Below are positions 21,395-48,229 of a stretch of 64,000 nucleotides of DNA, in pieces (the stretch's first letter is position 1; each line of letters begins with the position of its first letter). The translations under genes were made by a program, and so were the position numbers. Under the pieces are notes generated by a model. It did no database searches, was not told the origin of the DNA, and worked only from the letters and a program-made list of their open reading frames with translations. This DNA comes from an uncultured virus (IMG/VR IMGVR_UViG_3300011885_000055). Taxonomy: Duplodnaviria > Heunggongvirae > Uroviricota > Caudoviricetes. Location: IMG/VR virus record IMGVR_UViG_3300011885_000055; one strand, given 5' to 3'.

Positions 21395-21424
21395 TATTGT
21401 TCCTCCCATAGTCTTTCATCTAAT

Positions 21425-26861: not shown

Positions 26862-27752
26862 TCAATTTATTGGTTCGAATAGTACTTTAAATTCTTTTTT
26901 ATTAAATTCTATATCAAAAATATCTTTAATGTTATTTGTTTTAGCAATTTCTATTAAGTTTGTTCTTGCATCCTTGTCAATTTTACTTCCTAAATATAGC
27001 TCCTTAGGCTTTGGTGTACCAATTAGTTTACTTTGCTGTGTTTTGCATAAAGTACCAATAATTCTCCATTCATTTTCATACTTCCATACTGTCGATTTAC
27101 TCACAGTTGCATAAATTCCTGCAATGTACTTATTTTTAATGTGTAAATATTTTTGTATAGATGTCAACTCATCAGTATATACTACTGGTAAAATATTCTC
27201 TTTGTATAGTTCTATCATTTCTGAAAAATCATATCCAATACAAAAACCTTTGTAAGAATTTGCATAATGACTCCACATAAGCATTGAATTTCTATACTCC
27301 GATAAACAACATACTGCTATTTCTTTTTTTAATTTTTCCCAATCATTCTCTAATTCAATTTTCAATTTAACTAAATCTATTTCCATGTCTTTTTCCAATT
27401 TTTTTCTTTCTTTTTCATAGTGCCTTTTCGCTTCTCTATTTACAGAATATTTTCTTACTTCATTTTCAACCATACTCTTTGCAATTACTAATAATTGTTC
27501 AGAAATATCTATGTTAAGTTCACAATCATAAGGATCATTAAATTCTAATGGCGATGATAAAAACAACTGATTATTTTTAAAAGTTTCTATCTTAATTTTG
27601 TCTAATTCCGCATTCCCATTAACAGATAATGACACATATTTATATAACATAAATGGTTTTTTATCTGTAGGCATAATCAAAGATCTATCTGTCTTGGGAT
27701 TCTGCACTAATGAATTTACATAGCATTCTTTCCAATCAGCCTCTTTCTCCAT
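26862..27752 (-). CDS. DUF2971 domain protein
   Basis: LYKY, FNDPYDC, CLSE...LMWSHYANSYKGFCIGY, KSTVWKYENEWR. Confidence 0.85.
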   Translation of the reverse strand: MEKEADWKECYVNSLVQNPKTDRSLIMPTDKKPFMLYKYVSLSVNGNAELDKIKIETFKNNQLFLSSPLEFNDPYDCELNIDISEQLLVIAKSMVENEVRKYSVNREAKRHYEKERKKLEKDMEIDLVKLKIELENDWEKLKKEIAVCCLSEYRNSMLMWSHYANSYKGFCIGYDFSEMIELYKENILPVVYTDELTSIQKYLHIKNKYIAGIYATVSKSTVWKYENEWRIIGTLCKTQQSKLIGTPKPKELYLGSKIDKDARTNLIEIAKTNNIKDIFDIEFNKKEFKVLFEPIN

Positions 27753-28213: not shown

Positions 28214-29625
28214 TTATTCAATTACAACTTCTATCTCCGTTCCATCAAGCAGGGTTACAATGATTTTCTCCCCTTCAAACACAGTCATCTTTTCAATAAT
28301 CCTAAAAAACAAATCCATATTAAATTCTTCTATTGGTTCTGCATTTTCTATAATTCTCATAAACTGCTTTGCCTTATATCTTTGAAGCAAGTTATCACTT
28401 TTTAAATGTTCCTTCCACTTCTCCATAAAATAATTCTTATTTTCAATAATTGCATTAAAGGTATTTATAAAAGCTTGGTATAAAACTCTATCATCTATAT
28501 GCTTATTCTCGCAGCTCTTCTCACCTTTTACAGTGTACTTCTTATTACATCTCCAAATAATTCTTCTAAGTCTTTCATTGTTGGAGTTCCATACCTTTCT
28601 CCCAAATGTACTGCCACAGTGTCCACAAATAACTCTTCCAGCAAAAGGATTATCAACTGTTGCATAATCTAATTTACTAATGTTATATTTTTCAGCAAAG
28701 GCTCTTCTTCTCTCCATTTCAAGCTGTACTGCCTCCCACATTTCTTTATCTATAATTGCTGGATGGCTTTCTTCTACATAGTATTTAGAAACCTCACCAT
28801 TATTCTCTACCCTTATCTTTGTAAGGAAATCCACCGTGTAGGTCTTTTGAAGCAGTGCATCTCCCTTATACTTTTCATTACTAAGCATTTTTCTTATGCT
28901 GCTTTCATACCACTTTGATTTTCCATTCCAATTAGGAACTCCTTCAACTTCAAGTTCCCTTGCAATCCTATTTGGGCCTTTTCCATCAATGTAATCTGTG
29001 TAAATTCTTCTAACTATCTTAGCTTGCTTTTCATCTATTATTAAGTTTCCTTCTTCATCCTTATCATATCCTAAAAACTTTTTATGGTTTACCATCACCT
29101 TACCTTGCTCAAATCTTCTTCTGATACCCAAGTAGAGTTTTCGCTTATACTCCTTGATTCATCTTGTGCCAATGAACTTAGAATCGTTAGTAAAACTTCA
29201 CCTTTAGAATCTAAGGTATTAATATTTTCTTTCTCAAAAATCACCCCAATACCTAATTCTTTAAGGCTCCTTACATAATTCAAAGTGTCAAGAGTATTTC
29301 TTGCAAATCTTGATATGGACTTTGTTATTATCATGTCTATTTTTCCTGCTTTGCAATCCTCAATCATTTTATTAAACTGCTCACGCTTCTTGGTATTAGT
29401 TCCTGAAATTCCTTCATCTGCGTAAATTCCTGCACATTCATAATCTGAATGTCCATTTATATAATTAGTGTAATAATTAACCTGTGCTTCATAGCTTGAT
29501 AACTGTTCTAATTGGTCTGTTGAAACTCTGCAATAGGCAGCCATTCTCTGTTTTGTTTGTGACTGCCTTTGAACTGAATTCCCCTGAACCTTTTTCGCTC
29601 GTATAACTGTAACACTTCTTGCCAT
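28214..29625 (-). pseudogene. Large serine recombinase, frameshifted by 1 nt
   Basis: [19 protein letters not shown], recombinase domain and Zn ribbon CGHCG; split at TGG-GTA (expected TGG GGT ATC, W-G-I-R-R) at 29127-29129. Confidence 0.88.
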
Positions 29626-30775
29626 CCTTAATTTCCTCCTTTACAATAGTTGCTTCCTTTATATTAAGTCTGCTGATTACTACATCATCAATTGATGTTC
29701 CTATGCAGGCATCTTTTCCGTTTTTAATATAATTACTACATTGCCATACTATCTTTTTACTAGAGTTTTTACTGTTCCAAGTTCTTCTCCTTAAGGTAGC
29801 TCCACATTTACTGCAGTAAAGCATTCCTGTTAATGGATACCTTTTAGTGTACTTATCTACGTCTCCTACAACGTTTCCTTTTGTTTTTCCTCTTCTCTTA
29901 ATTTCCTCTTGTACCTGTTCCCACATTTCTTTTGTAATAATAGGTGAATGATTTTCTTTTATATAGTAACTATCTATGACTCCATTGTTTCTAATTGAAG
30001 TTTTCTTTAAATGTTCTGGTGTATAGTATTTTTGAAGTATCGCATCTCCTTTGTATTTCTCATTCTTTAAAATCCCTATAATTGTACTATTGTGCCAAGT
30101 CTTATTTCCTACAGTAGGAATGTTTTCTTTATTTAACTCCTTAGCTATTTTAGATGAACTTTTTCCATTAATGTAATCATTAAAAATTCTATTTACTAAT
30201 TCTGCTTCTTCAATATTTATAACCAACTCTCCATATTCATTCTTGTCATACCCTAAGAACCTTGTAGTGTTAATCATTAACTCACCTTGTTGAAACTGCT
30301 TTCTAGCTCTCCATTTTAAGTTTTCACTTACATTTCTGCTTTCTTCCTGTGCAAAAGAAGAAAGGACGGCAATCATTAACTCACCGTCCCCTGATAGGGT
30401 ATTTATATTTTCTTTTTCAAATCTAACTTCTATACCTAATTTTTTTAATTCCCTTACAGTGTATAAAACAACAGCTGTATTTCTTGCAAATCTAGATATA
30501 GACTTTGTAATTATTATTTCAATTTTCCCTTCTCTACATAGATGAAGCATTCTTTGAAACTCTGGTCTATTATCTGTAAACCCTGTTATTCCTCTATCTT
30601 TAAAAACTCCAACATATTCATACTCTGGATTACTAGACATAATATTTTCATAATACTGTACTTGATTTTCTAAAGATTCTCCTTGCTTGTCATGAATAGT
30701 AGAAACTCTAGCATAAGCACATACTCTTTTCTTCTTTTGCACTTTTAATATAGGCTCAATAATTCTTACACGCAC
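29489..30775 (-). CDS. Large serine recombinase
   Basis: [40 protein letters not shown] Zn ribbon. Confidence 0.9.
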
Positions 30776-30887
30776 TCTAATTACTCCTTTCTATCAAATT
30801 GGTACTAACATATATCACTCTAAAAATAATAGAAGTCAAGAAATATAAAATTGAAAACCACTACCTAAACCATAAGTAGTGGCTATT

Positions 30888-30965
30888 TATTAAATATCAT
30901 AATTAAAGCATCAAATCCTGCTCTCTTCAACTTCTGTACTTGATTTCCTGCATTCTTTCTATCCC
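30888..30965 (-). pseudogene. C-terminal SPOR-like tail of a phage amidase (relic)
   Basis: Minus strand reads RDRKNAGNQVQKLKRAGFDALI, typical of endolysin C-termini found upstream of such recombinase pairs. Confidence 0.5.
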
Positions 30966-31447
30966 TTCATAAGAAGTGTAAAAAAATAACAGCAGTACAA
31001 ATTGGACTGCCGCTACCTAAAATCTTAGTATCTACAATATGTGATATTCCTACTAATATAAAGATAAGAACCTTTTTAAAAATCCCCTTAAACCCTAATC
31101 TGCTAGTAGCGTTTGTGCTCCTATAAGAGATGGCCCAAATGCATAGTAATAATAACTATAAGAACTTGATCCACTCTACACTCCAAAACAATAGCCATAA
31201 ATATGATTCTTGTTAAAGAAATACTTTCTATTATCTGCCGGGTAAACTTCCCAAAATAGTTATGATATCAACAGAAGTTGTTTTCTTGATGTTATTACCA
31301 CAAAAGAACATTCTCACTCACCCAAAACATCAATTTAATATTGACACTTATAGATATAAATGCTAATTTACAATTAGTGGTATTAAGATACAACCTAACA
31401 ATAGGAGAGCATAAAGTAAATGAATAAATTATTAGGAGGTGCTACTA

Positions 31448-32344
31448 ATGACAACAAGAGGAAAAAGTATAAATCTGTTCTTAATGGATGGTAATGCAAA
31501 CGGTCGTATGAAATGTACCCTTGCTAACTGGACAGGTGTTGCATATAAAATTCCACGTACTGAGTTAGATAAGTGTAAAGAAAGAGATGATTTAAAACAA
31601 AGTGGTGTTTACTTTCTATTTGGCACGTCAGACCAGACTGGGAAAAATGTTGTTTACATAGGTCAAGCAGGTGCAAGAAAAAATGGTGAAGGAATTCTCA
31701 ATCGCTTGCAGGAACATAAACGTAATGCTGAGAAAGATTATTGGACAGAGGCCATTGTTTTCACAACCTCTAATAATTCATTTGGTCCCACCGAAATTAG
31801 TTATCTTGAAAATCGTTTCTGTAATCTTGCAATGCAGGCAAACCGCTACACTATTAAGAATGGGAACGACCCAACTCCAGGCAATATTACAGAGGAAAAA
31901 GAAAGCGAACTTGAGGAATTTATAGATTATGCAAAAATCATAATGGGGACACTTGGACATAAGATATTCCTACCATTTACAGAGTCAAAAACTTTTATTT
32001 CTGAAGCTACCACGGACAGTGAACCAGAATTGATTCTATATCTTAAGAGAAAAACTCGAAAAAGTGGGCAGATCATTGAAGCCTCTTGCAAGCAGACTAG
32101 TGAAGGTTTTGTAGTTCTAAAAGGTAGCCATATTGAAACAATAGATTCTCCAAGCATCCCTGTGAGAATTAAGGAAGCCCGAAAAAATGCAAAAATAGAT
32201 AACCAAGAAGTATTACAAGAGGATGTTCTATTTAATAGCCCTTCCTATGCTGCTGCTTTCGTTATCGGTGGTCACGTAAATGGTCTAACCGAGTGGAAAA
32301 CTACAGAGGGAAAAACCTTGAAAGAGCTTGAAGAAGAACAATAA
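31448..32344 (+). CDS. GIY-YIG nuclease family protein with C-terminal DUF4357
   Basis: SGVYFL...VYIGQA...RLQEH; C-terminal FVVLKGS...FNSPSYAAAFVIGGHVNGLTEWK; AGGAGG RBS before ATG 31448. Confidence 0.88.
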   Translation: MTTRGKSINLFLMDGNANGRMKCTLANWTGVAYKIPRTELDKCKERDDLKQSGVYFLFGTSDQTGKNVVYIGQAGARKNGEGILNRLQEHKRNAEKDYWTEAIVFTTSNNSFGPTEISYLENRFCNLAMQANRYTIKNGNDPTPGNITEEKESELEEFIDYAKIIMGTLGHKIFLPFTESKTFISEATTDSEPELILYLKRKTRKSGQIIEASCKQTSEGFVVLKGSHIETIDSPSIPVRIKEARKNAKIDNQEVLQEDVLFNSPSYAAAFVIGGHVNGLTEWKTTEGKTLKELEEEQ

Positions 32345-32347
32345 AAT

Positions 32348-32416
32348 TAGGATTTCCAGGACTGAAAATCATTGCTGTAAAATTAACAGCAACATTTTCA
32401 ATCTCGGAAATCCTTT
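32348..32416. terminator. Long hairpin, possible bidirectional terminator
   Basis: aggatttcc...tgaaaat / attttca...ggaaatcct inverted repeat right after the GIY-YIG stop. Confidence 0.5.
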
Positions 32417-32554
32417 ATATTTAGGGCATTTTTATTTCCTAATACTAAAACACTCTTAGTAAGCTTACAACCGCCTCAGCAGTAGCTTTCTGCCATTCAA
32501 AGTTCGTCTGTGACTCCTTTTCATGGGAAAGCCTTGCATGGACATTCGTAGGTC

Positions 32555-32608
32555 TTACTTCGTCCCTGCGGTCCTTGTAAGACTAACGACTGTCTCAACA
32601 TGCGGCGT
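32555..32608 (-). pseudogene. rlmD: Orphan 3' end of 23S rRNA m5U methyltransferase gene; integration junction
   Basis: Reads TPHVETVVSLTRTAGTK*, the TxHVETV C-terminal motif of RlmD/RumA; the expected upstream DMFP is absent and an in-frame TAA lies just upstream. Confidence 0.7.
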
Positions 32609-32746
32609 GTCTTAAAATAATATCTCATATTATAATTTAGAATAACCCTAAATCATTTACCATGCATTATAAACAGTACTGTTTAAGGAAATTCAATACT
32701 TTATTAAAGTTTATAGTATTTTATAATAATTTAATATAATTTGTGT

Positions 32747-32768
32747 ATGGGCAACAAATGGGCAACAA
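32747..32768. repeat. Tandem 11-bp direct repeat ATGGGCAACAA x2 (integrase arm-site-like)
   Basis: Exact copies at 32747-32757 and 32758-32768 near the prophage end. Confidence 0.55.
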
Positions 32769-32777
32769 TGTAGCCAT

Positions 32778-32811
32778 AAAAAAGACTACGGTTTAATTAT
32801 CTTAGTCTTTT
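32778..32811 (-). terminator. Terminator downstream of the CRISPR array
   Basis: aaaagacta...tagtctttt stem with a U-run on the minus strand. Confidence 0.5.
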
Positions 32812-32824
32812 GTGCATTATAAAA

Positions 32825-33181
32825 GTGAACCTACTTCTCTTGTTAATATTAATCATTTAATTAATGTTGATAGCATTAATTAAATGGTTATTCAAACACT
32901 TCTCTTGTTAATATTGACTGTATAATGTAAGAGAACTCAGAAGATTAATTCCTCATTCAAATACTTCTCTTGTTAATATTAACTCTGAATGTGTATTATG
33001 GACAGATCACAGTGAAACTCCATTCAAATACTTCTCTTGTTAATATTAACTATGGCTAATAGTAGTCGAGCCACAAACCAGTAACCAATTCAAATACTTC
33101 TCTTGTTAATATTAACTCTTTTTCAATATAAAAATGGTATTATCTATTTGATATTCAAATACTTCTCTTGTTAATATTAAC
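32825..33181 (-). CRISPR. CRISPR array: 6 repeats of 29 bp (GTTAATATTAACAAGAGAAGTATTTGAAT), 5 spacers of 36-38 bp
   Basis: Repeats at 33153-33181, 33088-33116, 33022-33050, 32955-32983 (identical), 32890-32918 (2 mismatches) and 32825-32853 (degenerate trailer); spacers 36, 37, 38, 36, 36 nt. Degeneracy polarity implies minus-strand transcription. Confidence 0.97.
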
Positions 33182-33211
33182 TACTAGTATTAAAGTCATT
33201 CCAACAAAAGT

Positions 33212-33392
33212 ATACTTAAATATAAAATGAGAAGTATCGTAGTAGAACCCTAGTTTATAACTACTCCCCTACTAACCTTTACCAAGTAAAATATACTTGA
33301 GGCATTATCGAGTGTTAAATACCTTTAAATATAGTAATATCAATACATTTCATGTATTCACTTCTCGATTTAGGTTGGTAAATCAACCTCTA
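33212..33392 (-). ncRNA. Putative Cas12f tracrRNA
   Basis: Minus strand: hairpin AGGTTG/CAACCT, CGAGAAGTG...AACACTCG pairing, hairpin CAAGTA/TACTTG, hairpin AGTAG/CTACT, then anti-repeat ATACTTCTC (33229-33237) complementary to the repeat GAGAAGTAT. Confidence 0.75.
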
Positions 33393-33398
33393 TTGTTT

Positions 33399-34727
33399 TT
33401 AACTACATTTTACTACTTCTGTTTCTTTAATTATAATATCAACATTTGGAATAGATATATTCTTACTAGCATTTACATCTGCATTTTCCCTGTGATTACA
33501 AATTACACATTCAAATTTTCCTTGATTCTCTTTACAATTTCTATTATCTTCATGAATACATCCACAATTACTACATCTTTTAGATGTATACATAGGATCT
33601 ATAAAAATGACTTTAATACCTATCTCATCAGATTTATCTTTAATTTTTTGTTGCAAATCATAGTAAGACCATTCTTTTAGGAACTTTTTATGTACATCTG
33701 CAGTAGCCTTAGATAAATCCTCCATCTGAATTACACCACAATTATTTTTGATAGCAAAATCTACAATGTATCTACTAACTTTATGGTTATATGTGTTAGA
33801 AAAATTTGAAATTTTATTTCGTACTCTATTGATAGACTTCATTCTTGTTTTATATCCGTGTCCAGTTTTACCTTTACCAGGACATTTATTAGCAATAGAT
33901 AACTCTCTTCTTTTATTATATTCTTTTTGCCTAAACGCTATTAATTCCTTACCACTAATAACATTATTTTTCCAACTAAAATAATCCCAGTCTTTAGTAT
34001 TATTATCCCATATACTCATAGCTGCTACATTAACTATTCCTAAATCTATGCCTAATAACCTATTTACATCTAATTCTTTTAGTTGTGGCTCAAATGAAAA
34101 TGATATTATAAACTCAATTTTACCTTTTTTAGATATACTTAATTGAGATGAACCTTGTTTATATTCACCGCTAATAATCTTATTTAAAACAGATTTTTTA
34201 TTATTATCTAATTTGTCTATCTTAAATTCTATTTTATATCCTGCTTTTTCACCAATAGATTGTAATCCTTCTTTACTATATAATCCAATATCAACATAGT
34301 ATCCATTATAATTTCTCAATACATAATTATTATTCTTTATATAAACAGGAGTATCTAATTTATATGTAGGCAGATTGGCCCTATAATTAATCACATCTTT
34401 TTTTAATCTTTTCCAGTCATTTTGAACCAATTGTTGATGCATTGTACTTACATTAGAAGTATTACATATATTCATAATATCTTTCATATGCTTCTCAACA
34501 ACATTTCTATAGGTCTTCCCATAAGTATTTTTCTCATACTCACTTTGATCGAAGTTTTTATCTTCATTCTTTTTCTCAATAATCGATATAGCATAGTCTT
34601 TCCACATGGATATACCTTTATTAGCAGCTTTACATGATAAATAACTCATATCCTTTATTATTTTTTTCACTTCTCTAATATCTCTATTTAAACATTTATT
34701 TAACACTATCTTTATAGATTTATTCAT
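33399..34727 (-). CDS. cas12f: Type V-F CRISPR effector, Cas12f1-like (TnpB-related RuvC nuclease, about 442 aa)
   Basis: RuvC-I LGIDLG, RuvC-II IQMEDL, Zn finger YTSKRCSNCG...CVIC, RuvC-III NADVNA; IISGEYK, FEPQ, GHG, WSYYDLQQKI and IPNVD..I match AsCas12f1 as recalled; adjacent to the array. Second ATG (34727) fits RBS spacing better than 34733. Confidence 0.88.
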   Translation of the reverse strand: MNKSIKIVLNKCLNRDIREVKKIIKDMSYLSCKAANKGISMWKDYAISIIEKKNEDKNFDQSEYEKNTYGKTYRNVVEKHMKDIMNICNTSNVSTMHQQLVQNDWKRLKKDVINYRANLPTYKLDTPVYIKNNNYVLRNYNGYYVDIGLYSKEGLQSIGEKAGYKIEFKIDKLDNNKKSVLNKIISGEYKQGSSQLSISKKGKIEFIISFSFEPQLKELDVNRLLGIDLGIVNVAAMSIWDNNTKDWDYFSWKNNVISGKELIAFRQKEYNKRRELSIANKCPGKGKTGHGYKTRMKSINRVRNKISNFSNTYNHKVSRYIVDFAIKNNCGVIQMEDLSKATADVHKKFLKEWSYYDLQQKIKDKSDEIGIKVIFIDPMYTSKRCSNCGCIHEDNRNCKENQGKFECVICNHRENADVNASKNISIPNVDIIIKETEVVKCS

Positions 34728-34810
34728 ACTCATATCTCCTTTCTTTGGATATGGTATGTAAAATATTAAAATATATTCGTATTAGTTAAATTAATAAATT
34801 AGATTTTCCT

Positions 34811-35569
34811 CTAGGCATAGTTTGTTATTATTAATTCTTTATATTTTTTACGAGCTTCTGCTTCTCTTGATACAGAATAATTTACTTCAACTTCTCTAAT
34901 ATTAAATCCCTTATACCATTCATGTACCTTCTCATGGTCATTAATTGTTAATAAAAACTTACCTTTAATATTTTTTAGCTTATCTCTTAATATTATATGC
35001 TCTTCTTCATCAAACTTATTTCCATATCCACATGTCTCAAAGTAAGGAGGATCGCAAAAGAAAAAGCTATGCTCTCTATCATATTTATCTATTATCTTTG
35101 AAAAATCTAAATTCTCTACATATGTATTTTTCAGTCTTTGCGATAGCTCTGATAGTACATTCTTATAAAATATTTGTTGTGATGGCTTTCCAACTGTCGA
35201 ATATCCATAAACTCCACCTTTCCCTGCAAAGCTTTGAGTTATTGTATACAAAAATCTAACTGCTCTATTTATTTCTGTTAGATACTCTAAATTTAAATGC
35301 TTGTACTCTTCGAATACATCTCTTCCTGAAAACTCAAATTCAAGTTGCCTTTCTATTTCAGGAGCATGATATTTAATCATTTTATAGAGATTTATAAGCT
35401 CCTTATCTATATCATTTATTATTTCTGTTTTGCTCTGCTCTTTCCCAAAATAAACCCATCCAGCTCCAAAGAATAACTCAATATAGCATTTATGCTCTGG
35501 TATCATTTCTATTATTGTTTTTCTTAATTTAGATTTTCCTCCAACTCTACATATTGGTGGTTTTAACAT
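34811..35569 (-). CDS. DNA adenine methyltransferase (Dam/D12 class)
   Basis: RVGGKSKL, YIELFFGAG, INDID, FFCDPPY. Confidence 0.9.
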   Translation of the reverse strand: MLKPPICRVGGKSKLRKTIIEMIPEHKCYIELFFGAGWVYFGKEQSKTEIINDIDKELINLYKMIKYHAPEIERQLEFEFSGRDVFEEYKHLNLEYLTEINRAVRFLYTITQSFAGKGGVYGYSTVGKPSQQIFYKNVLSELSQRLKNTYVENLDFSKIIDKYDREHSFFFCDPPYFETCGYGNKFDEEEHIILRDKLKNIKGKFLLTINDHEKVHEWYKGFNIREVEVNYSVSREAEARKKYKELIITNYA

Positions 35570-38161: not shown

Positions 38162-38989
38162 TTATTTTAAATGTTCATATACTGCCTGTGCAGTTTCATT
38201 TCTTCCAGCTCCATAATGGTGCTTAGTTGCTTTCATATCTTTTAATCCACCACCAACAGCATGTACAGAAGTACCTCTTATGAATCCTTTTTTATACTCT
38301 TCATCAGATACACATATAGAATCTTCATTTCTAGCATTAAGAATCCTATCAAAGAACTCTGCTGTAACTTTATCTGCAGTACCTTCTTTATAGACAATAA
38401 CATTTCTATATTTCTTAATATTAACATTGCTATTATTAGTCTTAATAGCAATACCTAAATGCTTAAGTATTCCATGAGCTATAACAATACCATTCCTTTT
38501 CTGCTCTGCTACTGTATCTGCTATTTGTACATCTTGTTTATTGTCTAGGAAACATACCTCAACTATTACTGCATCCATATTAGTATTACGGATCACATGG
38601 TAATAGTCTTTATTGTCACTACCTTTTTTCTCATAAACTTTCTTTTGTTGTCCTAATTTAGCAGCCATTTCATTTAAAATTGAATTAGCTAATTTTTGCC
38701 CCTTTCCTCTATAGATAGAGTGTATTCCTTCTCCTCTATCTCCACCACCAGCATTATGATGTATAGATACAAAATAATTTACACCTAGACTATTAGCCTT
38801 AGAAGTCCTTGCGTCTAGAGATACAAATACATCTGTTGTTCTAGCTTCACTTACAGTAACACCATGTCTTCTTAATTCAGCAGCACAAGAAAGTCCAGTA
38901 ACCAAATTAGCGTTTTTCTCTACTACACCATTTCCAACTGCTCCACTATCACTTCCACCATGTCCATAATCTAAAAATACCTTTGCCAT
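38162..38989 (-). CDS. Endolysin, N-acetylmuramoyl-L-alanine amidase (Amidase_3)
   Basis: VFLDYGHGGSDSGA...EK, FVSIHHNA, AVIVEVCFLDN; start ATG 38989 after AAGGAGG. Confidence 0.92.
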   Translation of the reverse strand: MAKVFLDYGHGGSDSGAVGNGVVEKNANLVTGLSCAAELRRHGVTVSEARTTDVFVSLDARTSKANSLGVNYFVSIHHNAGGGDRGEGIHSIYRGKGQKLANSILNEMAAKLGQQKKVYEKKGSDNKDYYHVIRNTNMDAVIVEVCFLDNKQDVQIADTVAEQKRNGIVIAHGILKHLGIAIKTNNSNVNIKKYRNVIVYKEGTADKVTAEFFDRILNARNEDSICVSDEEYKKGFIRGTSVHAVGGGLKDMKATKHHYGAGRNETAQAVYEHLK

Positions 38990-39048
38990 AATATATTCCT
39001 CCTTAAATTTTGAAAAATAAAAGAGTAGGATTGCTCCCACTCTGTAGA

Positions 39049-39300
39049 CTACTCTTTAGATATTTGCTTAATTAATTGATTGCCATATACTGCAGCTCCA
39101 GTTACCAATATACCTTGAATAACACTATCTGCACTAAAACCACTCATAACCCATACGCTTAATGCAATACCTATAGGTAATAAAATTACCGGTATATACT
39201 TATCTTTTATCCTCTCAGTGTTCTTTAAAATAGCTCCGATTATTAGCAGTACTGGTATAAGTATTAGAGCATTTTCTGTAATGTAATTAATAATTTCCAT
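39049..39300 (-). CDS. Phage holin
   Basis: Hydrophobic 83 aa with DKYIP...QGILVTGAAVYGNQLIKQ; directly upstream of the amidase. Confidence 0.85.
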   Translation of the reverse strand: MEIINYITENALILIPVLLIIGAILKNTERIKDKYIPVILLPIGIALSVWVMSGFSADSVIQGILVTGAAVYGNQLIKQISKE

Positions 39301-39315
39301 AATTATCTCTCCTTC

Positions 39316-39549
39316 TTATTTAAAAATATTATTTTGAATTGCATAAAAAAAGAACCCTGCAAAGGAACCTACAATTAAACCTATAAACCACTTCATTACT
39401 GTTGTTAATGATTTAAGGTTTTCACATAAATTTTTAAGCTCTGTCTTTAATGCAACACTGTCCTGTTCAAGCTTATCTAATCTCTTGCTATGATCATTTA
39501 GCCTAATATCATGCACTTCAATTTGATGTCCTATTAATTCCTCATTCAT
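39316..39549 (-). CDS. XhlA-family lysis accessory protein
   Basis: Coiled coil RLNDHSKRLDKLE plus C-terminal TM helix, in the lysis cassette. Confidence 0.75.
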   Translation of the reverse strand: MNEELIGHQIEVHDIRLNDHSKRLDKLEQDSVALKTELKNLCENLKSLTTVMKWFIGLIVGSFAGFFFYAIQNNIFK

Positions 39550-40050: not shown

Positions 40051-40527
40051 CTACTTTAATTTAAATGCTATATTTATAGAATGTGTTGCTGTAAAATTGG
40101 TAGCCATTTGAACATTTCCATTCAGAGAAGATATTGTTGCAACTCCAACCACCCATTGACCAGAAGTATTTGTACATGCTACAGGAACAGCTATTGTACC
40201 TATAGGTTTATACGCTGCAGGCAACACAAAAATAACCGAATTTACAGTTCCCCCCTTTATTACGCCCTGTATATGAACAACATTATTAGTGTCTTTCCAA
40301 TATTTAACGACGCTATACCCTTCATTAAAATTCACCCACCCATTTAAAAGCGTTGGATAAATTGCTCCAATTGTCATTCCTTGTATGAAATTCGTCACTT
40401 CTGCCAATTGCGACTCAACTGTTTTACCATCATTACAGAATACCTGTGCTGCTTTAGTCTTAAAATGTATCTCGTCAAAGTCTGTTCCATTGTCTACTTT
40501 ATAAACAGCATTTTTTATTGTTCCCAT
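40051..40527 (-). CDS. Tail fibre / receptor-binding protein
   Basis: LLNGWVN...YWKD...VHIQG...IFVLPAAYKP fibre-tip motif. Confidence 0.65.
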   Translation of the reverse strand: MGTIKNAVYKVDNGTDFDEIHFKTKAAQVFCNDGKTVESQLAEVTNFIQGMTIGAIYPTLLNGWVNFNEGYSVVKYWKDTNNVVHIQGVIKGGTVNSVIFVLPAAYKPIGTIAVPVACTNTSGQWVVGVATISSLNGNVQMATNFTATHSINIAFKLK

Positions 40528-40542
40528 CTTTCCACTCTCCTT

Positions 40543-43095
40543 TTACATAAGTTGTACCCATACTCGACCATTAACTTGCCCTGAAGGCTGAATTGCAGAG
40601 GTTATTATTTGAGTTCCATCTTTTCCTGGAGGACCTTGTGGCCCTGTTGCACCCACATCTCCTTTTATTCCCTGAGGACCTTGTGCTCCTGTAGCTCCTG
40701 TATCACCTTTTACTCCTTGAATCCCCTGAATACCTTGTATGCCTCTTGATGGTTTCCCGGTATCTGAACTTCCTAAGTACCAATTGCCATTAGTACCTAT
40801 AGTTGGAGTTATTCCATCATTTCCTTTTACCCCTTGAATACCTTGTATGCCTTGTGCTCCAGTATCTCCTTTAATTCCTTGTATTCCCTGAATACCTTGT
40901 GGCCCTCTAATATTTACAGTAGTAGGAATTGATGTACTTCCATTGTTGACCCAACTTAAATTACCATTTGAATCTATGCTAGGTCTCCATGTAAATCCAT
41001 TAGCTCCTGTTTGTCCTGTAGCTCCTATAGGACCTTGTAAACCTGTATCACCTTTATCTCCTTTTGGTCCTTGTGCTCCTGTAGATCCAACATCTCCCTT
41101 AGGGCCTTTTATATTCATTGATAATGGCGTTGTTGTTCCATTATTTAATACCCATGATATATTCCCACTTGAATCTACTGTAGGTCTCCAAGTATCACCT
41201 TTATCTCCCTTTAATCCCTGAATACCTTGTATGCCTTGTTCTCCTTTATCACCTTTAGGTCCTTGTAAGTCTACAACTGCCTGCATTGCTTCAATAAACA
41301 CTTTATCTTCTACATTTAATGCTATTTTAAAATTAATTGAGTTGCTGCTTTCCTCATTGAAAATCCTATTTGATACTCTTATCCCATTTAAATAAACCTT
41401 TATAGCATTTATTCCAATAGGATATACATACCCATCATTCCAAGTGAAAAGCGTTTGACCTTCTGTAGCTATAAAATGTTCATGAAATACAACATATGAT
41501 TGACCATTACCAGCAGGTCCTTGGACTCCTTGAATCCCTTGAATCCCTTGTGGCCCTTGTAATCCAGTATCACCTTTATCACCTTTAGCTCCTTTTAAAT
41601 CTACACCTAAATCATAAGTTCCATCTGGATTTTCTAGTTTTAAAGTAGTTCCTGACCATAAATGTTTTATTTTATCACCTTTTACACCCTGAATACCTTG
41701 TATTCCTTGTGCTCCAGTATCTCCTTTTATCCCTTGGGGACCAGTTAATCCTTGAGGTCCAATAGGACCAATATCTCCCTTGTCACCTTTTACTCCTTGA
41801 ATTCCCTGAATACCTTGGTCTCCTTTTTCTCCTTTAAGTCCTTGAACTCCTTGGTCTCCTTTTGGGCCTTGAATACCTTGAATACCTTGTGACCCAGTAT
41901 CTCCTTTATCACCCTTAGGTCCTTTAATATTTTGTACTAGTGGTCTTTCTAAAGAGCTTTTAATTTCCCAACTTAAATTACCAGTAGTATCTACTGTTGG
42001 ATACCAAGCCTTTTGAATTGTACCTGCTTCATTAGGTATAGATGAAACACTATTGTTTATTTGTTCCACTACAGTGGTTCCTATAGTTCCTACTGCTATT
42101 TCTATAGTTAAATCGCCTTCATATATCTCTCTTACTTCTGTTATTCTTAAGTCCTCATTTGTTTCTTTACTTTTTACAGTTACTATATCACCTAAATTCC
42201 AATCTCTCTCATACAGTAAATTTTTATTTATTATAGTAGATTCGGTATTTATGATATTATCAAATTGGCTTAATTTAGCTAATCCTCTACTTTCTATATT
42301 TTCAGCGTCTGATATATCTCTACCATCTATAAATACTTCTCTTCTATCTAATCCTATAGCATCATTCTTTTTAACTTCTTTAATTTCTCTTTCTACACCT
42401 TCACCCTGTCCACCAACATATGCAATGTTTTTATAATTTACAGAATTAGTAGTATGAACAGCATTAGTTATATTATTAAATTCACTTGAAAATATAACTC
42501 TTGAATTTACACTTTGTGTTGCAGCTCTGTTTACTCCTACCTCAATATCAAATATAAATTTCTTTGTCTTAGGATCTAAATAAATAAACCATCCTATTTC
42601 TCCAGTTCTAGATATACTCTCAGTTTCACTCATAAGATTTTTATATCTACTTTCCCAACTAATAATTGAACCTCTATTTTTATTAGGAGCAATTATTAAA
42701 TTTGGTATCCTCCTGTTTATATCTGCTGGATTAACACAACATACATCTACATAGTGCTTTATCACACTTTCAACATTTCCCTTGTATTTATCGTAAGCTT
42801 CACCATTAGGAGGTACTGTTACCCTTCTTTCGATTATGCTCTTTATATCTCTTCCTTTAACTGTTATTTGCTTCTTAGTTTCATCCTCTTCTACTTCTTC
42901 GATAATCATAGCTTTATTTTTATTTAAATATATATAGTTATCTTTTTTAAGAATAGAAGAGTATTTAATTGGTGCTACTAAATGAAACTCTTTAGCCTGA
43001 AAAAAGCTTCTTACAAAATAAAAAGAGATATAATCTTCTATATCTCCTATAAATGTAAGTTCACTATTTAATATTTTTAAGCTAACTCTATCCAT
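40543..43095 (-). CDS. Siphovirus Gp37-like minor tail protein with collagen-like repeats
   Basis: YVGGQGEG..R...RREVFID...DWNLGDIVTV; extensive G-X-Y (GIQ, GPQ, GDK) blocks. Confidence 0.85.
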   Translation of the reverse strand: MDRVSLKILNSELTFIGDIEDYISFYFVRSFFQAKEFHLVAPIKYSSILKKDNYIYLNKNKAMIIEEVEEDETKKQITVKGRDIKSIIERRVTVPPNGEAYDKYKGNVESVIKHYVDVCCVNPADINRRIPNLIIAPNKNRGSIISWESRYKNLMSETESISRTGEIGWFIYLDPKTKKFIFDIEVGVNRAATQSVNSRVIFSSEFNNITNAVHTTNSVNYKNIAYVGGQGEGVEREIKEVKKNDAIGLDRREVFIDGRDISDAENIESRGLAKLSQFDNIINTESTIINKNLLYERDWNLGDIVTVKSKETNEDLRITEVREIYEGDLTIEIAVGTIGTTVVEQINNSVSSIPNEAGTIQKAWYPTVDTTGNLSWEIKSSLERPLVQNIKGPKGDKGDTGSQGIQGIQGPKGDQGVQGLKGEKGDQGIQGIQGVKGDKGDIGPIGPQGLTGPQGIKGDTGAQGIQGIQGVKGDKIKHLWSGTTLKLENPDGTYDLGVDLKGAKGDKGDTGLQGPQGIQGIQGVQGPAGNGQSYVVFHEHFIATEGQTLFTWNDGYVYPIGINAIKVYLNGIRVSNRIFNEESSNSINFKIALNVEDKVFIEAMQAVVDLQGPKGDKGEQGIQGIQGLKGDKGDTWRPTVDSSGNISWVLNNGTTTPLSMNIKGPKGDVGSTGAQGPKGDKGDTGLQGPIGATGQTGANGFTWRPSIDSNGNLSWVNNGSTSIPTTVNIRGPQGIQGIQGIKGDTGAQGIQGIQGVKGNDGITPTIGTNGNWYLGSSDTGKPSRGIQGIQGIQGVKGDTGATGAQGPQGIKGDVGATGPQGPPGKDGTQIITSAIQPSGQVNGRVWVQLM

Positions 43096-43703
43096 ATATC
43101 TCCCACCTTATGAGTAGTTGGGGTAGTATTTTGAATATAAATACCTCTTATACTCTGCCCTTGCATATTAGTAAACCAATCTTGCCATATACTCTTTTGT
43201 TCACCCCATTGTTGGTTAAATAAGTTCCACATAGCTTGTAAATCATCTTTACCTGAGAAACTCATATAACCACACAATGAAGCCTGACCTCTTTCATCTT
43301 CAACTATTACTGTATCGTTCTTAATAGTTATCTTACATAAAGATAGTTCATGTACACTACTATTCCTGGTAAGATTCGGTGGAGCTATAGCTGTTCCTTC
43401 TAAAACTACTATATTAAGTGTTCTATTTGATATATCTAACCTTAAAACTATTCTTACAATCTTAGTTACTCCTGTAGGAATTGATTTAGTTAATTCAGTA
43501 CTATTAAGATATAGATATCCATTTATACAAGCACTGCCTGGTAATATTTTAATCTGTGAATTACTTACTTTAACTGCTCTTAAGCTATCTGTACTAGGAT
43601 TGATTCCATTACCTATAAATGTTTTAAAGTAATTTGCAAAATCTTCACTTTTATACTTTCTATCCCCATTTACACTATTAAAAAAACCTCCAAATTCAGC
43701 CAA
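43077..43703 (-). CDS. Baseplate / minor tail protein
   Basis: GFFNSVNGDRKY...FIGNG...GSACINGY...IVLRLD motif. Confidence 0.7.
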   Translation of the reverse strand: MAEFGGFFNSVNGDRKYKSEDFANYFKTFIGNGINPSTDSLRAVKVSNSQIKILPGSACINGYLYLNSTELTKSIPTGVTKIVRIVLRLDISNRTLNIVVLEGTAIAPPNLTRNSSVHELSLCKITIKNDTVIVEDERGQASLCGYMSFSGKDDLQAMWNLFNQQWGEQKSIWQDWFTNMQGQSIRGIYIQNTTPTTHKVGDIWIELA

Positions 43704-43714
43704 TTTGTCACCTC

Positions 43715-44587
43715 CTATAAACTAAAGTAATGGCATTTATATTTTATTACTACACTTTGTGGTAAAAAATCACCATCAGTAGCATAACTAATTAAGTTCT
43801 TGCCTGGATCTAGATTAAAGAATTTAGTATCAATATTTATATAATGATATGCCTGTTCTTCTATATCTCCTCTCATAACTTGTACAGCTTTATTATCAAA
43901 GGAGGTATTAATATAAAGTATCTCGTCATCTTCAAGGTTTCTATCAACTTTTATAAATTTACCATCATTTAAAGTTATTGATGGATTAAGTGCCGGGCCT
44001 TTAAAGAAAACTTCTAATGGTGCTTCTACGTTACCATAGTTATTAATTTCAATTTCATTAGGTCCTTTTCTTGCAAACTCAATTCCAAGAGAAGGCAATT
44101 CAAACTCAAATTCAAAACCACCTTCCCAAGTTTCAACATTTACTACAGTATCCTCTTGATCCATCCAAAACGGATTAAAACACTCAAAATTTACTGTAAA
44201 TGCTAAAGCACTTTTATTATTAGTTTTATAATCCGTTGAATATAATGGAGATTCATCACATGAACCTTCTATTTGTTTACTTATTCCATTATTATTATAT
44301 TTAATAATCACTTGATCTAATGGATTTAAAACATCATCTATATTCTTTTTTATTGTATTTCTCTCCATAATATCATTACTTAATATAATAGCCTTAATCT
44401 CTACAGGTCTTTCTTCTATAGATGTAGATAGCAATGATGAACCATATTGTCCAATGCCCTTAACCTTATTAAACTTTGCTGAAATGTTTCCTGGATTGAA
44501 GTAGGTTACAAGAACCCCAGTACTGTTTATATAAGATTCTAAAGTTATTGAATTATTGGTTCTTTTATTAATTATATCTATTCTCAT
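43715..44587 (-). CDS. Distal tail protein (Dit)
   Basis: Follows TMP; FECFNPFW, INNYGNVEAP, FFNLDPGKN. Confidence 0.8.
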   Translation of the reverse strand: MRIDIINKRTNNSITLESYINSTGVLVTYFNPGNISAKFNKVKGIGQYGSSLLSTSIEERPVEIKAIILSNDIMERNTIKKNIDDVLNPLDQVIIKYNNNGISKQIEGSCDESPLYSTDYKTNNKSALAFTVNFECFNPFWMDQEDTVVNVETWEGGFEFEFELPSLGIEFARKGPNEIEINNYGNVEAPLEVFFKGPALNPSITLNDGKFIKVDRNLEDDEILYINTSFDNKAVQVMRGDIEEQAYHYINIDTKFFNLDPGKNLISYATDGDFLPQSVVIKYKCHYFSL

Positions 44588-44598
44588 ATTTTATCCTC

Positions 44599-47500
44599 CT
44601 ATGCAAACTGCAAGTCTCTCATGCTCTTTTTACTAGCTTTAGCTACTTCATAAGGACTTTCTACTTTGCCATAGAAATTATTAGTAACATTTACTCCATT
44701 ATTCTTATTAGGCTCGATTTTAGTTTTTTCTATATCGGTACTAGGCATATTCCCATATACTCCTACACTCATATCTGTACTTAACCCTTTTATAGCATCA
44801 GTTACTAAATATTTGCTATTATTTATTCCTTTAGCTAAACCATCCATAAAGTCTGGCATCCATGTTTCGTAATCTGTTAAAGGCCCTTCATCCGGTACTG
44901 AGAAGTGCAAAAAGTTTCTTATCCTCTCTCCTACACTTGAAACTGCATCTACTACGCCACCTATCATTGATTTTATTCCATCAATTAATCCCTGAATAAA
45001 GTCCTTTCCCCATGTAATTGCTTGACTAGGTAATGATGTTATAAATTTTATAGCATCATTAAATCCATTTGTAATATAACTGCCTAAGGTATTAAGAATA
45101 GAACCTATTCCTTTCTTTAAGCTAGAGAAAATACTTACTCCTAAGTTATATAGTGTGCTGGGTAAATTTCTAAAAAAGTTAACTATCCCATTAAAAATAT
45201 TTACTACTGAAGTAGATACCCCATTACAGATAGATACTATTATGTTCTTAAATCCATTCCATGCACTTGAAGCAAGATTTTTAATTCCATTCCATATGCC
45301 ACTAAAAAAATTCTTTAGTCCATTCCAAATTGTTGTTGCTACAGTTACTATTCCATTCCATGCCGCAGTAAGAAAATTAGCTATAGCTGTTACAACTCCA
45401 GTAAATACTCCTTTAATCCCTTGCCATATAAGAGAAAATGCAGCTTTCAAATTATTAAATATTCCTTCTGCATCTGTTTTTAGCTTAGTAAAATTACCTG
45501 TGACTAAATCTATTATTAGAAGTATTGCTCCTAAGAATATATTTTTTATTACTTCCCATATACCCATAAAGAAGTCTTTTAAACCTATTAATATCATTGA
45601 TATACTATCTTTAAATAAATTAAACAGTATCATTACTCCATTTATAAAAGGTGTAATTATGGCCATCACTAAAGAAACTATACTATTCCAAACATTAAAG
45701 AAAACCATTTTAATACTTTCCCATACAATTTGAGTTATATCTCTTACTTGCCCCCACAGATTACTAAACCATCCTGGAATACTTTGAAAAAATAAAACTA
45801 ATCCATTCCACGCTTCTGGTATTGTAACTGTAAAGAAATTTACAAGTGCATCTATAAAAGCTCCTGTTAACTCTTTTATATTATTCCATAATCCAATCCA
45901 AAAGTTTCTAAAACCTTCTGACTTATTCCATAGAACTACAAAGGCTGCTACAACTGCTAATATAGCTATAACTATCCATGTAAGTGGACACGCTAGAAAT
46001 GCTAAATTTAATCCATTTTGTGCTACTGTTGCTGCTCCTGTGGCTGTAGTTTCAGCTGCAATTGCAGTGGTATGCAATGCTTTAGCTGTAGCTATTTTCC
46101 CATAAAGTCCTATTAATGCACTTACTCCGGTTGCCATCTTACCTACTATAATCAATAGTGGGCCTACTGCTGCTACTATTCCACCTATTATAATTATCAT
46201 CTTTTGTGTTTCTGGTGATAAACTACTAAATTTTTGTGCAATACTCTTTAAAGCTTCACTAACACTCTGAAACATTGGAGCTAATATATCCATTATTATT
46301 TCTCCAACTTCTCCCATTGTTACTTTTACATTCTGCATAGCAAGTTCTGCATCATATCCACCATCTACAAGCCCATCAAAAGTATTATCAACGGTTCCAT
46401 CTGCTCCAGCAATAACATTTAACATCTCTTCAAATTCAAATCTTCCACCTTTTATTGCATCTGCAAGGTCAGGACCTGCTTTAGCTCCAAATATTTCTAT
46501 GGATTTTGTTGTTGCACTTGCAATATCAGGACAAGATTTTATTTCTTCTAATGTTTTTTTAAATTCTTCTCTAGAATCTTTACCTTCAGCACTCCAATTA
46601 CTGATAGCTTTTTTCATACCACTAAAAGCTATCTCTGTATTTACTCCAGCTTTTTCCCAACTAGAGAATATTGCAATACTCTCTTGGGTTTCAAATCCTA
46701 AAGCTCTCATAGGAGCACCATACTTAGTAAGATTTTCAGTAAGTTTATCTATGCTTATTCCACTTGCTTGTGCTGCTACTGCTAAACTATCTAATACACT
46801 AGAATATTCACTAGAATCTATACCAGCATCACCCATAGCTCTACTAACTAATTGCACAGATGTTAATGCATCTGTTCCGGTAACTTCTGAAAACTTCATA
46901 AATTTTTCTGTACAGTTCTCTAATTCTTCACCTGTAAAACCAAATCTAGTATTTACTTCACCTAAAGTACTTCCTATATCTCCAAAATCACCAACTACAC
47001 TTTGTGCTACTTTTTTATAACTATTTTCTAGCTTTTCTGCTGCTTCTCCAGTTGCTCCAGTTGCTCTGATTACATTGTCAGCACCTTCATCTACAGCATT
47101 AAATGCAGCTACTCCTGCTGTACCTACTGCTGCTATTCCTGCAGTAACAGGTAATAATGCTTTACCTACTTTTGTAGTTTTAGTTCCAAACTCATCAATT
47201 TTATCTTTTGCATTTGTAAGACTTGAGCTCATACCAACTCCGAAATCTTTAGCTTCATTGGTTAACGATTTTAATTTATTTTCTGTACTTGCAATTTCTC
47301 TTTGGAAATCTCTATATTGTTCTGATGTTATTTCACCTTTATCAAATTGAGCTTGAACCTGTTCTTGTGTGCTTTTTAGTATAGTTAGCTTACCTTTTGT
47401 ATTAGTTATACTTTCAGTTAATAGGTCTTGTTTTTGTTTAATTAAATCAACATTGCTTGGATCCATTTTTAATAAACTATTAACGCCTCTTAATTCCCTC

Positions 47501-47601
47501 TGTAAAGACTTACTGTTGGAATCTACTTCATTAAGAGCCTTATTAAGTTTCGTAGTATCTCCACCAATTTCAACTGTTATACCTTTTATGCTTCCTGCCA
47601 T
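44599..47601 (-). CDS. Tail tape measure protein
   Basis: IKGITVEIGGDTTKL N-terminus, Trp/Phe periodic repeats, LHFSVPDEGPL. Confidence 0.93.
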   Translation of the reverse strand: MAGSIKGITVEIGGDTTKLNKALNEVDSNSKSLQRELRGVNSLLKMDPSNVDLIKQKQDLLTESITNTKGKLTILKSTQEQVQAQFDKGEITSEQYRDFQREIASTENKLKSLTNEAKDFGVGMSSSLTNAKDKIDEFGTKTTKVGKALLPVTAGIAAVGTAGVAAFNAVDEGADNVIRATGATGEAAEKLENSYKKVAQSVVGDFGDIGSTLGEVNTRFGFTGEELENCTEKFMKFSEVTGTDALTSVQLVSRAMGDAGIDSSEYSSVLDSLAVAAQASGISIDKLTENLTKYGAPMRALGFETQESIAIFSSWEKAGVNTEIAFSGMKKAISNWSAEGKDSREEFKKTLEEIKSCPDIASATTKSIEIFGAKAGPDLADAIKGGRFEFEEMLNVIAGADGTVDNTFDGLVDGGYDAELAMQNVKVTMGEVGEIIMDILAPMFQSVSEALKSIAQKFSSLSPETQKMIIIIGGIVAAVGPLLIIVGKMATGVSALIGLYGKIATAKALHTTAIAAETTATGAATVAQNGLNLAFLACPLTWIVIAILAVVAAFVVLWNKSEGFRNFWIGLWNNIKELTGAFIDALVNFFTVTIPEAWNGLVLFFQSIPGWFSNLWGQVRDITQIVWESIKMVFFNVWNSIVSLVMAIITPFINGVMILFNLFKDSISMILIGLKDFFMGIWEVIKNIFLGAILLIIDLVTGNFTKLKTDAEGIFNNLKAAFSLIWQGIKGVFTGVVTAIANFLTAAWNGIVTVATTIWNGLKNFFSGIWNGIKNLASSAWNGFKNIIVSICNGVSTSVVNIFNGIVNFFRNLPSTLYNLGVSIFSSLKKGIGSILNTLGSYITNGFNDAIKFITSLPSQAITWGKDFIQGLIDGIKSMIGGVVDAVSSVGERIRNFLHFSVPDEGPLTDYETWMPDFMDGLAKGINNSKYLVTDAIKGLSTDMSVGVYGNMPSTDIEKTKIEPNKNNGVNVTNNFYGKVESPYEVAKASKKSMRDLQFA

Positions 47602-47652
47602 ATTACCCTCCTTTCTTAAAATAAAAAATGAGCTATGTAATGATAGCTCATT

Positions 47653-47916
47653 TTACTTCTTACCTACTTTTTTTCTTAAAGCTTCTCTTTGAGGTTTTGT
47701 TTGTTCTATCCTCCAACAATTATCTAAATATTTTCGTCCTTCTTCTGTCTGCATATATCTATAAATAATTGCATCACGTAATAATAACCAAAACTCAAAT
47801 ACTTCTAATTCATCAATCCTATCAAAGTTATAACCGGTATATTCACTAACTATTTTTTCTTCAATGGTATTAACTTCATAATGCCCCTCTTCTCCTTCAT
47901 CAGGGTAATAGGGCAC
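47653..47916 (-). CDS. Tail assembly chaperone, frameshift extension (gpT-like)
   Basis: In the -1 frame of the upstream chaperone via C CCA AAC. Confidence 0.7.
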   Translation of the reverse strand: MPYYPDEGEEGHYEVNTIEEKIVSEYTGYNFDRIDELEVFEFWLLLRDAIIYRYMQTEEGRKYLDNCWRIEQTKPQREALRKKVGKK

Positions 47917-47918
47917 TT

Positions 47919-48215: not shown

Positions 48216-48229
48216 TGTCTATCCCTCCA

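Follow-up and report, generated by a model that had tools for sequence, protein, structure and literature searches.

A probable type V-F1 CRISPR-Cas12f1 locus carried as prophage cargo, and its possible use of host type I-B adaptation

How could a CRISPR locus that carries no adaptation genes gain new spacers? This question is raised by a stretch of 64,000 nucleotides (nt) from an uncultured virus (IMG/VR record IMGVR_UViG_3300011885_000055; Caudoviricetes), hereafter the window, in which a gene for a compact nuclease is followed on the minus strand by a structured RNA region and a repeat array. The unit of cas12f1, RNA region, and array (32825-34733, minus strand) measures 1909 bp. In this work, we found that it is very probably an interference module of type V-F1 (formerly V-U3), and that its array has the design of the type I-B arrays of clostridial hosts. 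The simplest reading, because of this array design and the turnover of spacers between related loci, is that a host type I-B system may insert the spacers in trans.

The cas12f1 gene (33399-34733, minus strand) encodes 444 amino acids (aa) from its first ATG and 442 aa from a second ATG at 34727, which has a AAAGGAGA ribosome-binding site about 8 nt ahead. A database protein (P0001) that is identical to the window Cas12f1 has 442 aa, and the ATG at 34727 is the likely true start. The catalytic residues of the RuvC nuclease, namely, D230 (GIDLG), E338 (MEDL), and D419 (NAD), align to the matching motifs of the solved AsCas12f chain, which gives the tri-split RuvC arrangement, and C387/C390...C409/C412 form a zinc ribbon. 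Across 32 aligned family members, E338, D419, and all four zinc cysteines never vary, and D230 is retained in at least 90% of the sequences.

Searches with models and sequences bear on the identity of this protein. In PADLOC, the Cas12u3 model is spanned in full (expectation value, E, 2.1e-116), and so is the type V-F Cas12f model (E 3e-110). A phmmer search against all Protein Data Bank (PDB) chain sequences placed 8j3r, 8j1j, 8j12, 8dzj, and 7wju at the top (E 8e-69 to 3e-67; residues 5-438), followed by 9nzq (1e-54), 9i8y (8e-51), 8hr5 (7e-29), 9nzp, 9nzo/9nzr, and 7l48/7c7l (about 1e-20). According to the available part of PMC13186708, the matched chains are AsCas12f and engineered forms of it, OsCas12f, SpCas12f1, CnCas12f1, RhCas12f, Al3Cas12f, and Un1Cas12f. 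Pfam assigned the domains Cas12f1-like_TNB (E 3e-18) and OrfB_IS605. In NCBIfam, guided_TnpB is the sole model passing (145.9 bits, cut-off 100); no Cas12f1 model of that library reaches its cut-off on the window protein, and Cas12f2 and IS200_TnpB are far under theirs (54.9 bits against 425 for IS200_TnpB). By phmmer, PADLOC, and NCBIfam scores, rather than by a tree, the protein is closer to characterised Cas12f1 than to TnpB. Because of the PDB and PADLOC matches and the invariant catalytic and zinc residues, the window protein is identified as an intact Cas12f1 of the AsCas12f/V-U3 branch, for which we found 553 homologues.

The array (32825-33182, minus strand) lies on the same strand as cas12f1, 216 nt downstream. 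It contains six 30-nt repeats (33153-33182, 33088-33117, 33022-33051, 32955-32984, 32890-32919, and 32825-32854) with a period of 65-67 nt, and five spacers (33118-33152, 33052-33087, 32985-33021, 32920-32954, and 32855-32889) of 35, 36, 37, 35, and 35 nt, respectively. Six spaced copies of a 30-mer cannot be put down to chance. Of these repeats, the fifth departs at two positions, and the last one is degenerate. Just past the array is a terminator-like hairpin with a U run (32777-32811, minus strand; 9-bp stem, z = -1.1), a weak candidate that the consensus scan did not call. A promoter scan was uninformative, with 13 sites where 20.9 were expected. At 32850-32890, a 17-nt inverted repeat that is 94% complementary is made up of the oldest spacer together with the end of the degenerate sixth repeat.

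The 216 nt from the stop codon to the first repeat (33183-33398, minus strand) are a putative coding region for a trans-activating CRISPR RNA (tracrRNA), as judged from comparison with related loci. The corresponding gap measures 190-226 nt in the 8 relatives with a downstream array, and sequence is conserved across 8 aligned gene-array gap regions. An inverted repeat puts a 25-nt anti-repeat, complementary to the array repeat, at 33213-33237; with the core at 33230-33238, which pairs with repeat nt 17-25, the feature extends over 33213-33238 (minus strand). For 8 aligned loci, RNAalifold predicted a helix of 9 bp that joins the anti-repeat to repeat nt 17-25. In this helix, 93% of the alignment cells pair, sliding the partner by 1-3 columns lowers the figure to 32-50%, and five of the nine pairs have changed on both sides (13 double-change cells). 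None of 500 shuffles reached a covariation score as high, a count that is not a probability because the 8 loci are mutually related, and the slid control retains this relatedness. The consensus fold of the five closest sequences comprises 51 pairs, of which 12 show compensatory changes, and includes a 5' hairpin (33372-33389, minus strand; AGGTTG-ATTTAC-CAACCT) whose pairs are retained in relatives, with some two-sided changes. The region alone, folded as the window sequence, has z = -2.6. Rfam, searched with 30500-35000 and a limit of E 1, had no match. Among public runs, none with RNA was listed as containing the locus.

These comparisons provide good evidence for a predicted tracrRNA between cas12f1 and the array. 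Because of the covariation of the anti-repeat and the conserved gene-array spacing, use of the array by Cas12f is strongly indicated. Several claims of an earlier sequence-only reading of this DNA are supported at this point. It had described a 442-444-aa RuvC nuclease with three acidic motifs and a zinc finger, followed on the same strand by about 215 nt of structured RNA and a six-repeat array, all in under 2 kb, and the residues, the 216-nt region with its conserved fold, the six repeats, and the 1909-bp length agree with this description. Its assignment to Cas12f1 with a tracrRNA is upheld by the AsCas12f matches, PADLOC Cas12u3, and the anti-repeat covariation; placement with hidden Markov models likewise gave Cas12f1 (full PADLOC Cas12u3/Cas12f models), with IS200_TnpB below its cut-off.

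Related loci were collected with an alignment-based scan, which gave 79 in species genomes and another 28 in IMG/VR; a single-protein query gave none. A small array adjoins the gene in 30 of the closest 43 (L001-L022 and L080-L100). The 85% relative, an IMG/VR contig (L080), has the same order of XhlA, holin (92%), amidase, Dam (93%), cas12f, and array. In the IMG/VR classification, five of the related records are provirus and another five have direct terminal repeats. Two cultured phages also carry Cas12f1 homologues annotated as 'transposase', namely, Bacillus phage Mgbh1 (33% identity over the full length) and Alicyclobacillus phage MMB025, and in both a mini-array lies a short way upstream of the homologue (L126, 2809-2909, two repeats in Mgbh1; L127, 2497-2669, three repeats in MMB025). 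Carriage by phages is common for the Cas12f family of this locus. Two oddities were seen among the related arrays. The Cas12f array of Clostridium ihumii (L010:3774-3879) has the same 38-nt spacer twice in succession, and in one Sarcina ventriculi contig (L011 and L017) a Cas12f array recurs about 40 kb away with all its spacers identical, which may be a duplicated element or an assembly artefact.

The window itself appears to have no means of adaptation. A Pfam scan of its 106 open reading frames (ORFs) of at least 60 aa (64 + 42) identified no Cas1, Cas2, Cas4, or Y1 transposase, in agreement with the earlier statement that cas1, cas2, cas4, and tnpA are lacking in the window. One PADLOC Cas2 match (E 1e-4) inside a 690-aa protein was disregarded, as no stretch of it passes alone. 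Cas1 (PF01867) was found in none of 20 related viral records, 5 of which are at least 90% complete. By contrast with these records, 13 of the 18 host genomes that carry a relative (3/5 and 10/13 in the two sets) have Cas1 once, elsewhere in the genome. The locus presumably cannot gain spacers by itself.

The arrays of host genomes may point to a source of adaptation. We took Cas1-linked arrays from 12 host genomes, of which three (G002, G032, and G031) were typed as I-B by NCBIfam from Cas6, Cas8b, Cas5b, Cas3, Cas4, and Cas1b. The window array has the same design, namely, a 29-30-nt repeat with a ...GTATTTAAAT-like end and spacers of 35-37 nt (30 nt and 35-37 nt in the window), and the spacer lengths of the Cas12f arrays (33-38 nt) are those of I-B arrays. 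The window repeat matches the I-B repeat of G031, whose array adjoins cas6-cas8b-cas5b-cas3-cas4-cas1b, at 24 of 30 right-aligned positions (0/20,000 shuffles), and the repeats of G032, G028, and G002 at 22, 21, and 20 of 30, respectively, again right-aligned. Within single genomes, the repeats of the Cas12f array and of the Cas1-linked array are similar in Sarcina ventriculi G032 (26/30), in G034 (26/29), and in C. brassicae G002 (24/30, with the last 21 nt identical), each with 0/20,000 shuffles. A separate likeness was seen in L087 (9543-9977) and L122, where the 32-nt repeat of a viral Cas12f array matches the Cas1-linked repeat of the unrelated host G036 at about 27 of 32 positions by hand count. 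It suggests that a different type of host array is copied in other branches of the family.

The similarity extends into the leader. With one mismatch allowed, a junction motif, AATGGCTNNNNTAC, sits at a single shared offset in 6 of the 13 distinct leaders of Cas12f arrays, that of the window included, and in 5 of 8 host Cas1-linked arrays. The window version, AATGACTTTAATAC (33187-33200, minus strand), has one mismatch to the motif and starts 18 nt before the first repeat. The background for this motif is 139 matches per 4.2 Mb of strand sequence. We found no paper that describes the window locus or the leader-junction motif, in a search that left subscription journals and bioRxiv supplements outside its range.

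Spacers also appear to turn over. L080 has a repeat identical to that of the window and shares 0 spacers with it. An 18,441-nt contig from a public run, with a 97%-like gene and conserved flanks, is densely different at every spacer position and has one repeat-spacer unit fewer, with 100 nt replaced by 36. Between two near-identical proviruses, L085 has one extra leader-proximal spacer compared with L001.

Insertion of new spacers in trans by host type I-B Cas1-Cas2-Cas4 is a proposal for which we would give about even chances on this comparative evidence. A broader version is somewhat more tentative, and we hold it a little short of even. It states that the phage Cas12f1 locus borrows host I-B adaptation, with leader junction, 30-nt repeat, and 35-37-nt spacers built to I-B specification, and that the anti-repeat co-evolves with the I-B repeat variant. 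The CRISPR RNAs (crRNAs) might then serve both host Cascade and Cas12f1, and the repeat type of Cas12f arrays across the family would follow that of the host (I-B for Clostridium and Sarcina; elsewhere, a different 32-nt repeat family).

Several observations count against such borrowing. One of the four statistically tested same-genome repeat pairs is dissimilar (G033; 13/28, 1480/20,000 shuffles), and five other same-genome pairs (G004, G027, G030, G035, and G036) have unrelated host repeats of 30-38 nt, with a loose resemblance of 20/32 by hand count in G036. The junction motif, with one mismatch allowed, is absent from 7 of the 13 Cas12f-array leaders, and Cas1 is missing from 5 of the 18 host genomes. 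Exact matches to the 22 nt at the 3' end of the repeat were confined to the contig of the 85% relative and a single copy in a metagenome contig of 3.3 kb, and a host I-B array bearing the window's exact repeat was not found. A scan of five host genomes with a degenerate repeat-tail pattern was too noisy to be informative, except for an excess in the single genome that has I-B arrays. The shared array design could reflect ancestry rather than present use, and a deletion in L001 could explain the extra spacer of L085 equally well. Apart from the question of borrowing, the array could be old or aimed at unsampled elements, because none of its five spacers has a credible target.

The search for those targets covered 50,697 phage and 72,556 plasmid records, where the five window spacers had no credible match (all E at least 0.1). 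Against the fetched related loci they gave 17-nt matches only, and against 37 related genomes and records only repeat-to-repeat matches and chance matches of about 22 nt (E about 0.01 per genome). The database search proposed in the sequence-only reading as a way to read the protospacer-adjacent motif (PAM) therefore yielded no credible protospacer. We also searched 145 spacers of 23 related arrays against the fetched loci, and two have convincing non-array matches. In the first, a spacer of a C. paraputrificum provirus (L001/L082/L085) matches a tail-like gene (L081:20371-20405, 32/35; 5' flank ...GTCA) in a viral contig of 131 kb, which has its own Cas12f relative (64%) with no array found within 10 kb. 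This match fits conflict between phages, and a single case cannot define a PAM. In the second, the third spacer of a 118-kb IMG/VR phage with terminal repeats and a Cas12f relative of 38% identity (L097) self-targets the phage's own holin-like gene at 34/34 (L097:5132-5165 and L097:11431-11464; 5' flank ...TTCC). The match to the tail-like gene of another viral contig is the sole support for the targeting of mobile elements. Of the earlier proposal of an interference module against competing mobile elements, the module stands, and the targeting is not supported for the window array (0/5 spacers matched).

By analogy with AsCas12f, OsCas12f, and SpCas12f1, the array transcript and the tracrRNA would form a duplex, a Cas12f1 dimer would bind it, and the single RuvC site would cut double-stranded DNA beside a 5' PAM. 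The lysogen and its prophage would be shielded from other phages or plasmids, and host type I-B Cas1-Cas2-Cas4 would most likely load new spacers in trans. The guide of characterised Cas12f enzymes is only about 20 nt. The explanation as a V-F1 module in prophage cargo is one that we hold with high confidence, with about even chances for the in-trans step. A second user of the array has nevertheless to be weighed, since the array follows I-B design in the lengths of its repeats and spacers, in repeat sequence, and at the leader junction. It could in effect be a phage-borne type I-B array that host Cascade uses, with Cas12f a non-user or a sharer, and the available parts of PMC4173771 and PMC4556805 describe such prophage-borne I-B arrays in Clostridioides difficile. 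However, in 8 loci the anti-repeat beside cas12f and the repeat covary, the distance between gene and array is kept, and there is no type I-B cas gene within the 64-kb window. We regard this explanation as improbable; use of the array by type I-B only is unlikely, and the two systems may share it.

The 0/5 spacers with a target and the degenerate terminal repeats would also suit a decaying relic that is carried along and is no longer expressed or active. Degenerate repeats at the trailer end are normal in CRISPR arrays. Against decay stand an unbroken reading frame with every catalytic and zinc residue in place, a conserved tracrRNA region and anti-repeat, and different spacer sets in near-identical loci, which point to recent turnover; decay seems very improbable. 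Alternatively, the gene could be an IS200/IS605- or IS607-type TnpB with an omega RNA, i.e., a transposon. Such an identity would explain why guided_TnpB passes in NCBIfam and no Cas12f1 model does, and why PHROGs and public records label relatives as 'transposase'. Yet the ORFs of the window include no Y1 transposase, and the serine recombinases 2.6 kb off are of the large phage type, with Recombinase and Zn-ribbon domains. The array has five different spacers where an omega RNA would bear a single guide, the best solved relatives are all CRISPR-associated Cas12f, and arrays recur across the family. There is one copy of cas12f1 within the window, and no sign of transposon ends was seen at the locus, although no search aimed at ends was made. 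A TnpB identity is, in our view, extremely improbable, and the V-F1 interference module is the reading that we retain.

The element that hosts this locus is recognised from its gene order as a temperate siphovirus-type prophage of a Clostridium-like host, with ordered packaging, head, tail, and lysis modules and a recombinase. Downward from about 63.9 kb on the minus strand are genes for a helix-turn-helix protein, replication-type proteins, RecU, and an HNH protein, followed by the packaging, head, and tail genes (40051-55282, minus strand; TerS, TerL, portal, ClpP-type protease, capsid, tail genes, tape measure, Dit, and gp37-like). The lysis module (38162-39549, minus strand) consists of XhlA (39316-39549), holin (39049-39300), and amidase (38162-39040). 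The cargo between the amidase gene and cas12f1 encodes DUF6941, two unknown proteins, a DUF3862/BLIP-like lipoprotein, and a Dam-like methylase. The last is a D12-class N6-adenine DNA methyltransferase (34811-35569, minus strand) directly upstream of cas12f1, with 75.6% DNA identity to the methylase of Clostridium phage phiSM101. This gene order confirms that cas12f1 occupies a siphovirus post-lysis cargo slot, as the sequence-only reading had it.

On the other side of the array is a gene on the plus strand (31439-32344) for a DUF4357 protein, the PADLOC candidate defence gene PDC-S14 (E 1.7e-114; phrog_12629). Large serine recombinase genes (28214-30775, minus strand) mark the prophage end, with one intact copy (29489-30775) and a second that is split (29095-29625 and 28214-29131). 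The split copy has its resolvase domain in the former ORF and its Recombinase and Zn-ribbon domains in the latter; the two ORFs overlap each other, and the split copy overlaps the intact one as well. It is either a frameshifted gene or the product of a sequencing slip. A second PADLOC candidate, PDC-S31 (DUF2971; 26862-27752, E 3e-54), lies on the other side of the recombinase genes from PDC-S14. The two candidates flank the recombinases, which places the Cas12f locus within a run of defence-type cargo.

Other features of the window were noted as well. In the AT-rich gap between PDC-S14 and the array, a G+C-rich folding stretch (32490-32625) has z = -3.94 on the minus strand, with 0/200 shuffles as good, and Rfam (E up to 1) has no match to it. 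A type I restriction-modification system is encoded by HsdM (19931-21409), HsdS (18767-19927), and HsdR (11443-14766); between hsdS and hsdR are genes for a defence-type reverse transcriptase (14790-18209; PADLOC RT_UG24, E 1.6e-295) and a small protein associated with it (18213-18761). The remains of other elements (774-8801) include a fragment of a TerL nuclease domain (774-1259), a protein with an FRG domain (4181-5392), and a second type I restriction-modification system broken into short ORFs, with HsdR pieces (5373-7359) and N6_Mtase pieces (7744-8801).

The locus adds to the AsCas12f clade a natural orthologue of 442 aa with a defined, predicted tracrRNA region and repeat, and it is not special among hundreds. 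The earlier suggestion of a new compact editing orthologue holds as far as a usable candidate is concerned; its novelty does not, given hundreds of close homologues and the prior description of V-F1/V-U3. The more useful point is the route by which spacers enter V-F1 arrays that have no adaptation genes. The observations on repeat, leader, and turnover make I-B borrowing directly testable by an acquisition assay, and they suggest that temperate phages may use host adaptation machinery to arm their own nuclease.

Among known systems, the available part of PMC7229846 describes V-U3/Cas12f1 as small effectors found mainly in Clostridia and Bacilli without adaptation proteins, with a putative tracrRNA between gene and array and PAM-dependent cleavage of double-stranded DNA. 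V-U3/Cas12f1 systems of Clostridia and Bacilli that lack adaptation genes are also described in the accessible text of PMC10691335. The best solved match over the full length is AsCas12f1 of Acidibacillus sulfuroxidans (V-F1, formerly V-U3; PDB 8J12, 7WJU, and 8DZJ). The window protein has diverged from it (434 residues with gaps in HMMER), the repeat and tracrRNA differ, and the window copy is in a prophage. The other solved orthologues, namely, OsCas12f (E 1e-54), SpCas12f1 (8e-51), CnCas12f1 (7e-29), RhCas12f (2e-28), Al3Cas12f (7e-28), and Un1Cas12f1 (2e-20), are further away than AsCas12f, and several are longer (497-529 aa).

A likeness in setting is seen in Clostridium novyi sensu lato, where type V-U 'Cas14a' genes are located on a botulinum neurotoxin (BoNT) phage and a presumed phage-inducible chromosomal island (PICI), as far as the available part of PMC8473940 reports. 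These are also clostridial, mobile-element-borne, TnpB-like Cas12f genes by solitary arrays with 29-30-nt repeats; the loci adjoin restriction-modification genes and occur in genomes with type I-B (PMC8473940). They differ in being carried by a PICI or a large phage-plasmid, whereas the window locus is in the cargo slot of a siphovirus prophage, and in their repeats (PMC8473940); for these loci, the available part mentions neither a tracrRNA nor a leader motif. The idea of borrowing has itself been put forward in the PAMPHLET preprint (10.1101/2024.04.09.587696), which in its available part argues that V-F1 uses type I-B adaptation from co-occurrence and shared predicted PAMs (14/26 pairs). 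In contrast to that evidence, ours consists of repeat and leader-junction identity, anti-repeat tracking, and spacer turnover, and both are computational. The leader and repeat evidence is an incremental addition to the idea and not a new concept.

The IS200/IS605 TnpB proteins are the ancestral family of Cas12f1, and Pfam OrfB_IS605 and NCBIfam guided_TnpB match the window protein; unlike them, the window locus has a spacer array and a separate putative tracrRNA, and has no TnpA. CasPhi and Cas-lambda work without a tracrRNA. Both belong to other Cas12 branches, whereas the window locus appears to be an ordinary V-F1 with a tracrRNA. It shares with Cas12j/CasPhi, Cas12l/Cas-lambda, and the viral V-F1/V-U3 effectors the traits of being phage-borne and compact, with small arrays and no adaptation genes, as described in the available part of PMC12607003. 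The same source places many virus-encoded effectors with V-F1/V-U3, in phages that it describes as lacking adaptation genes.

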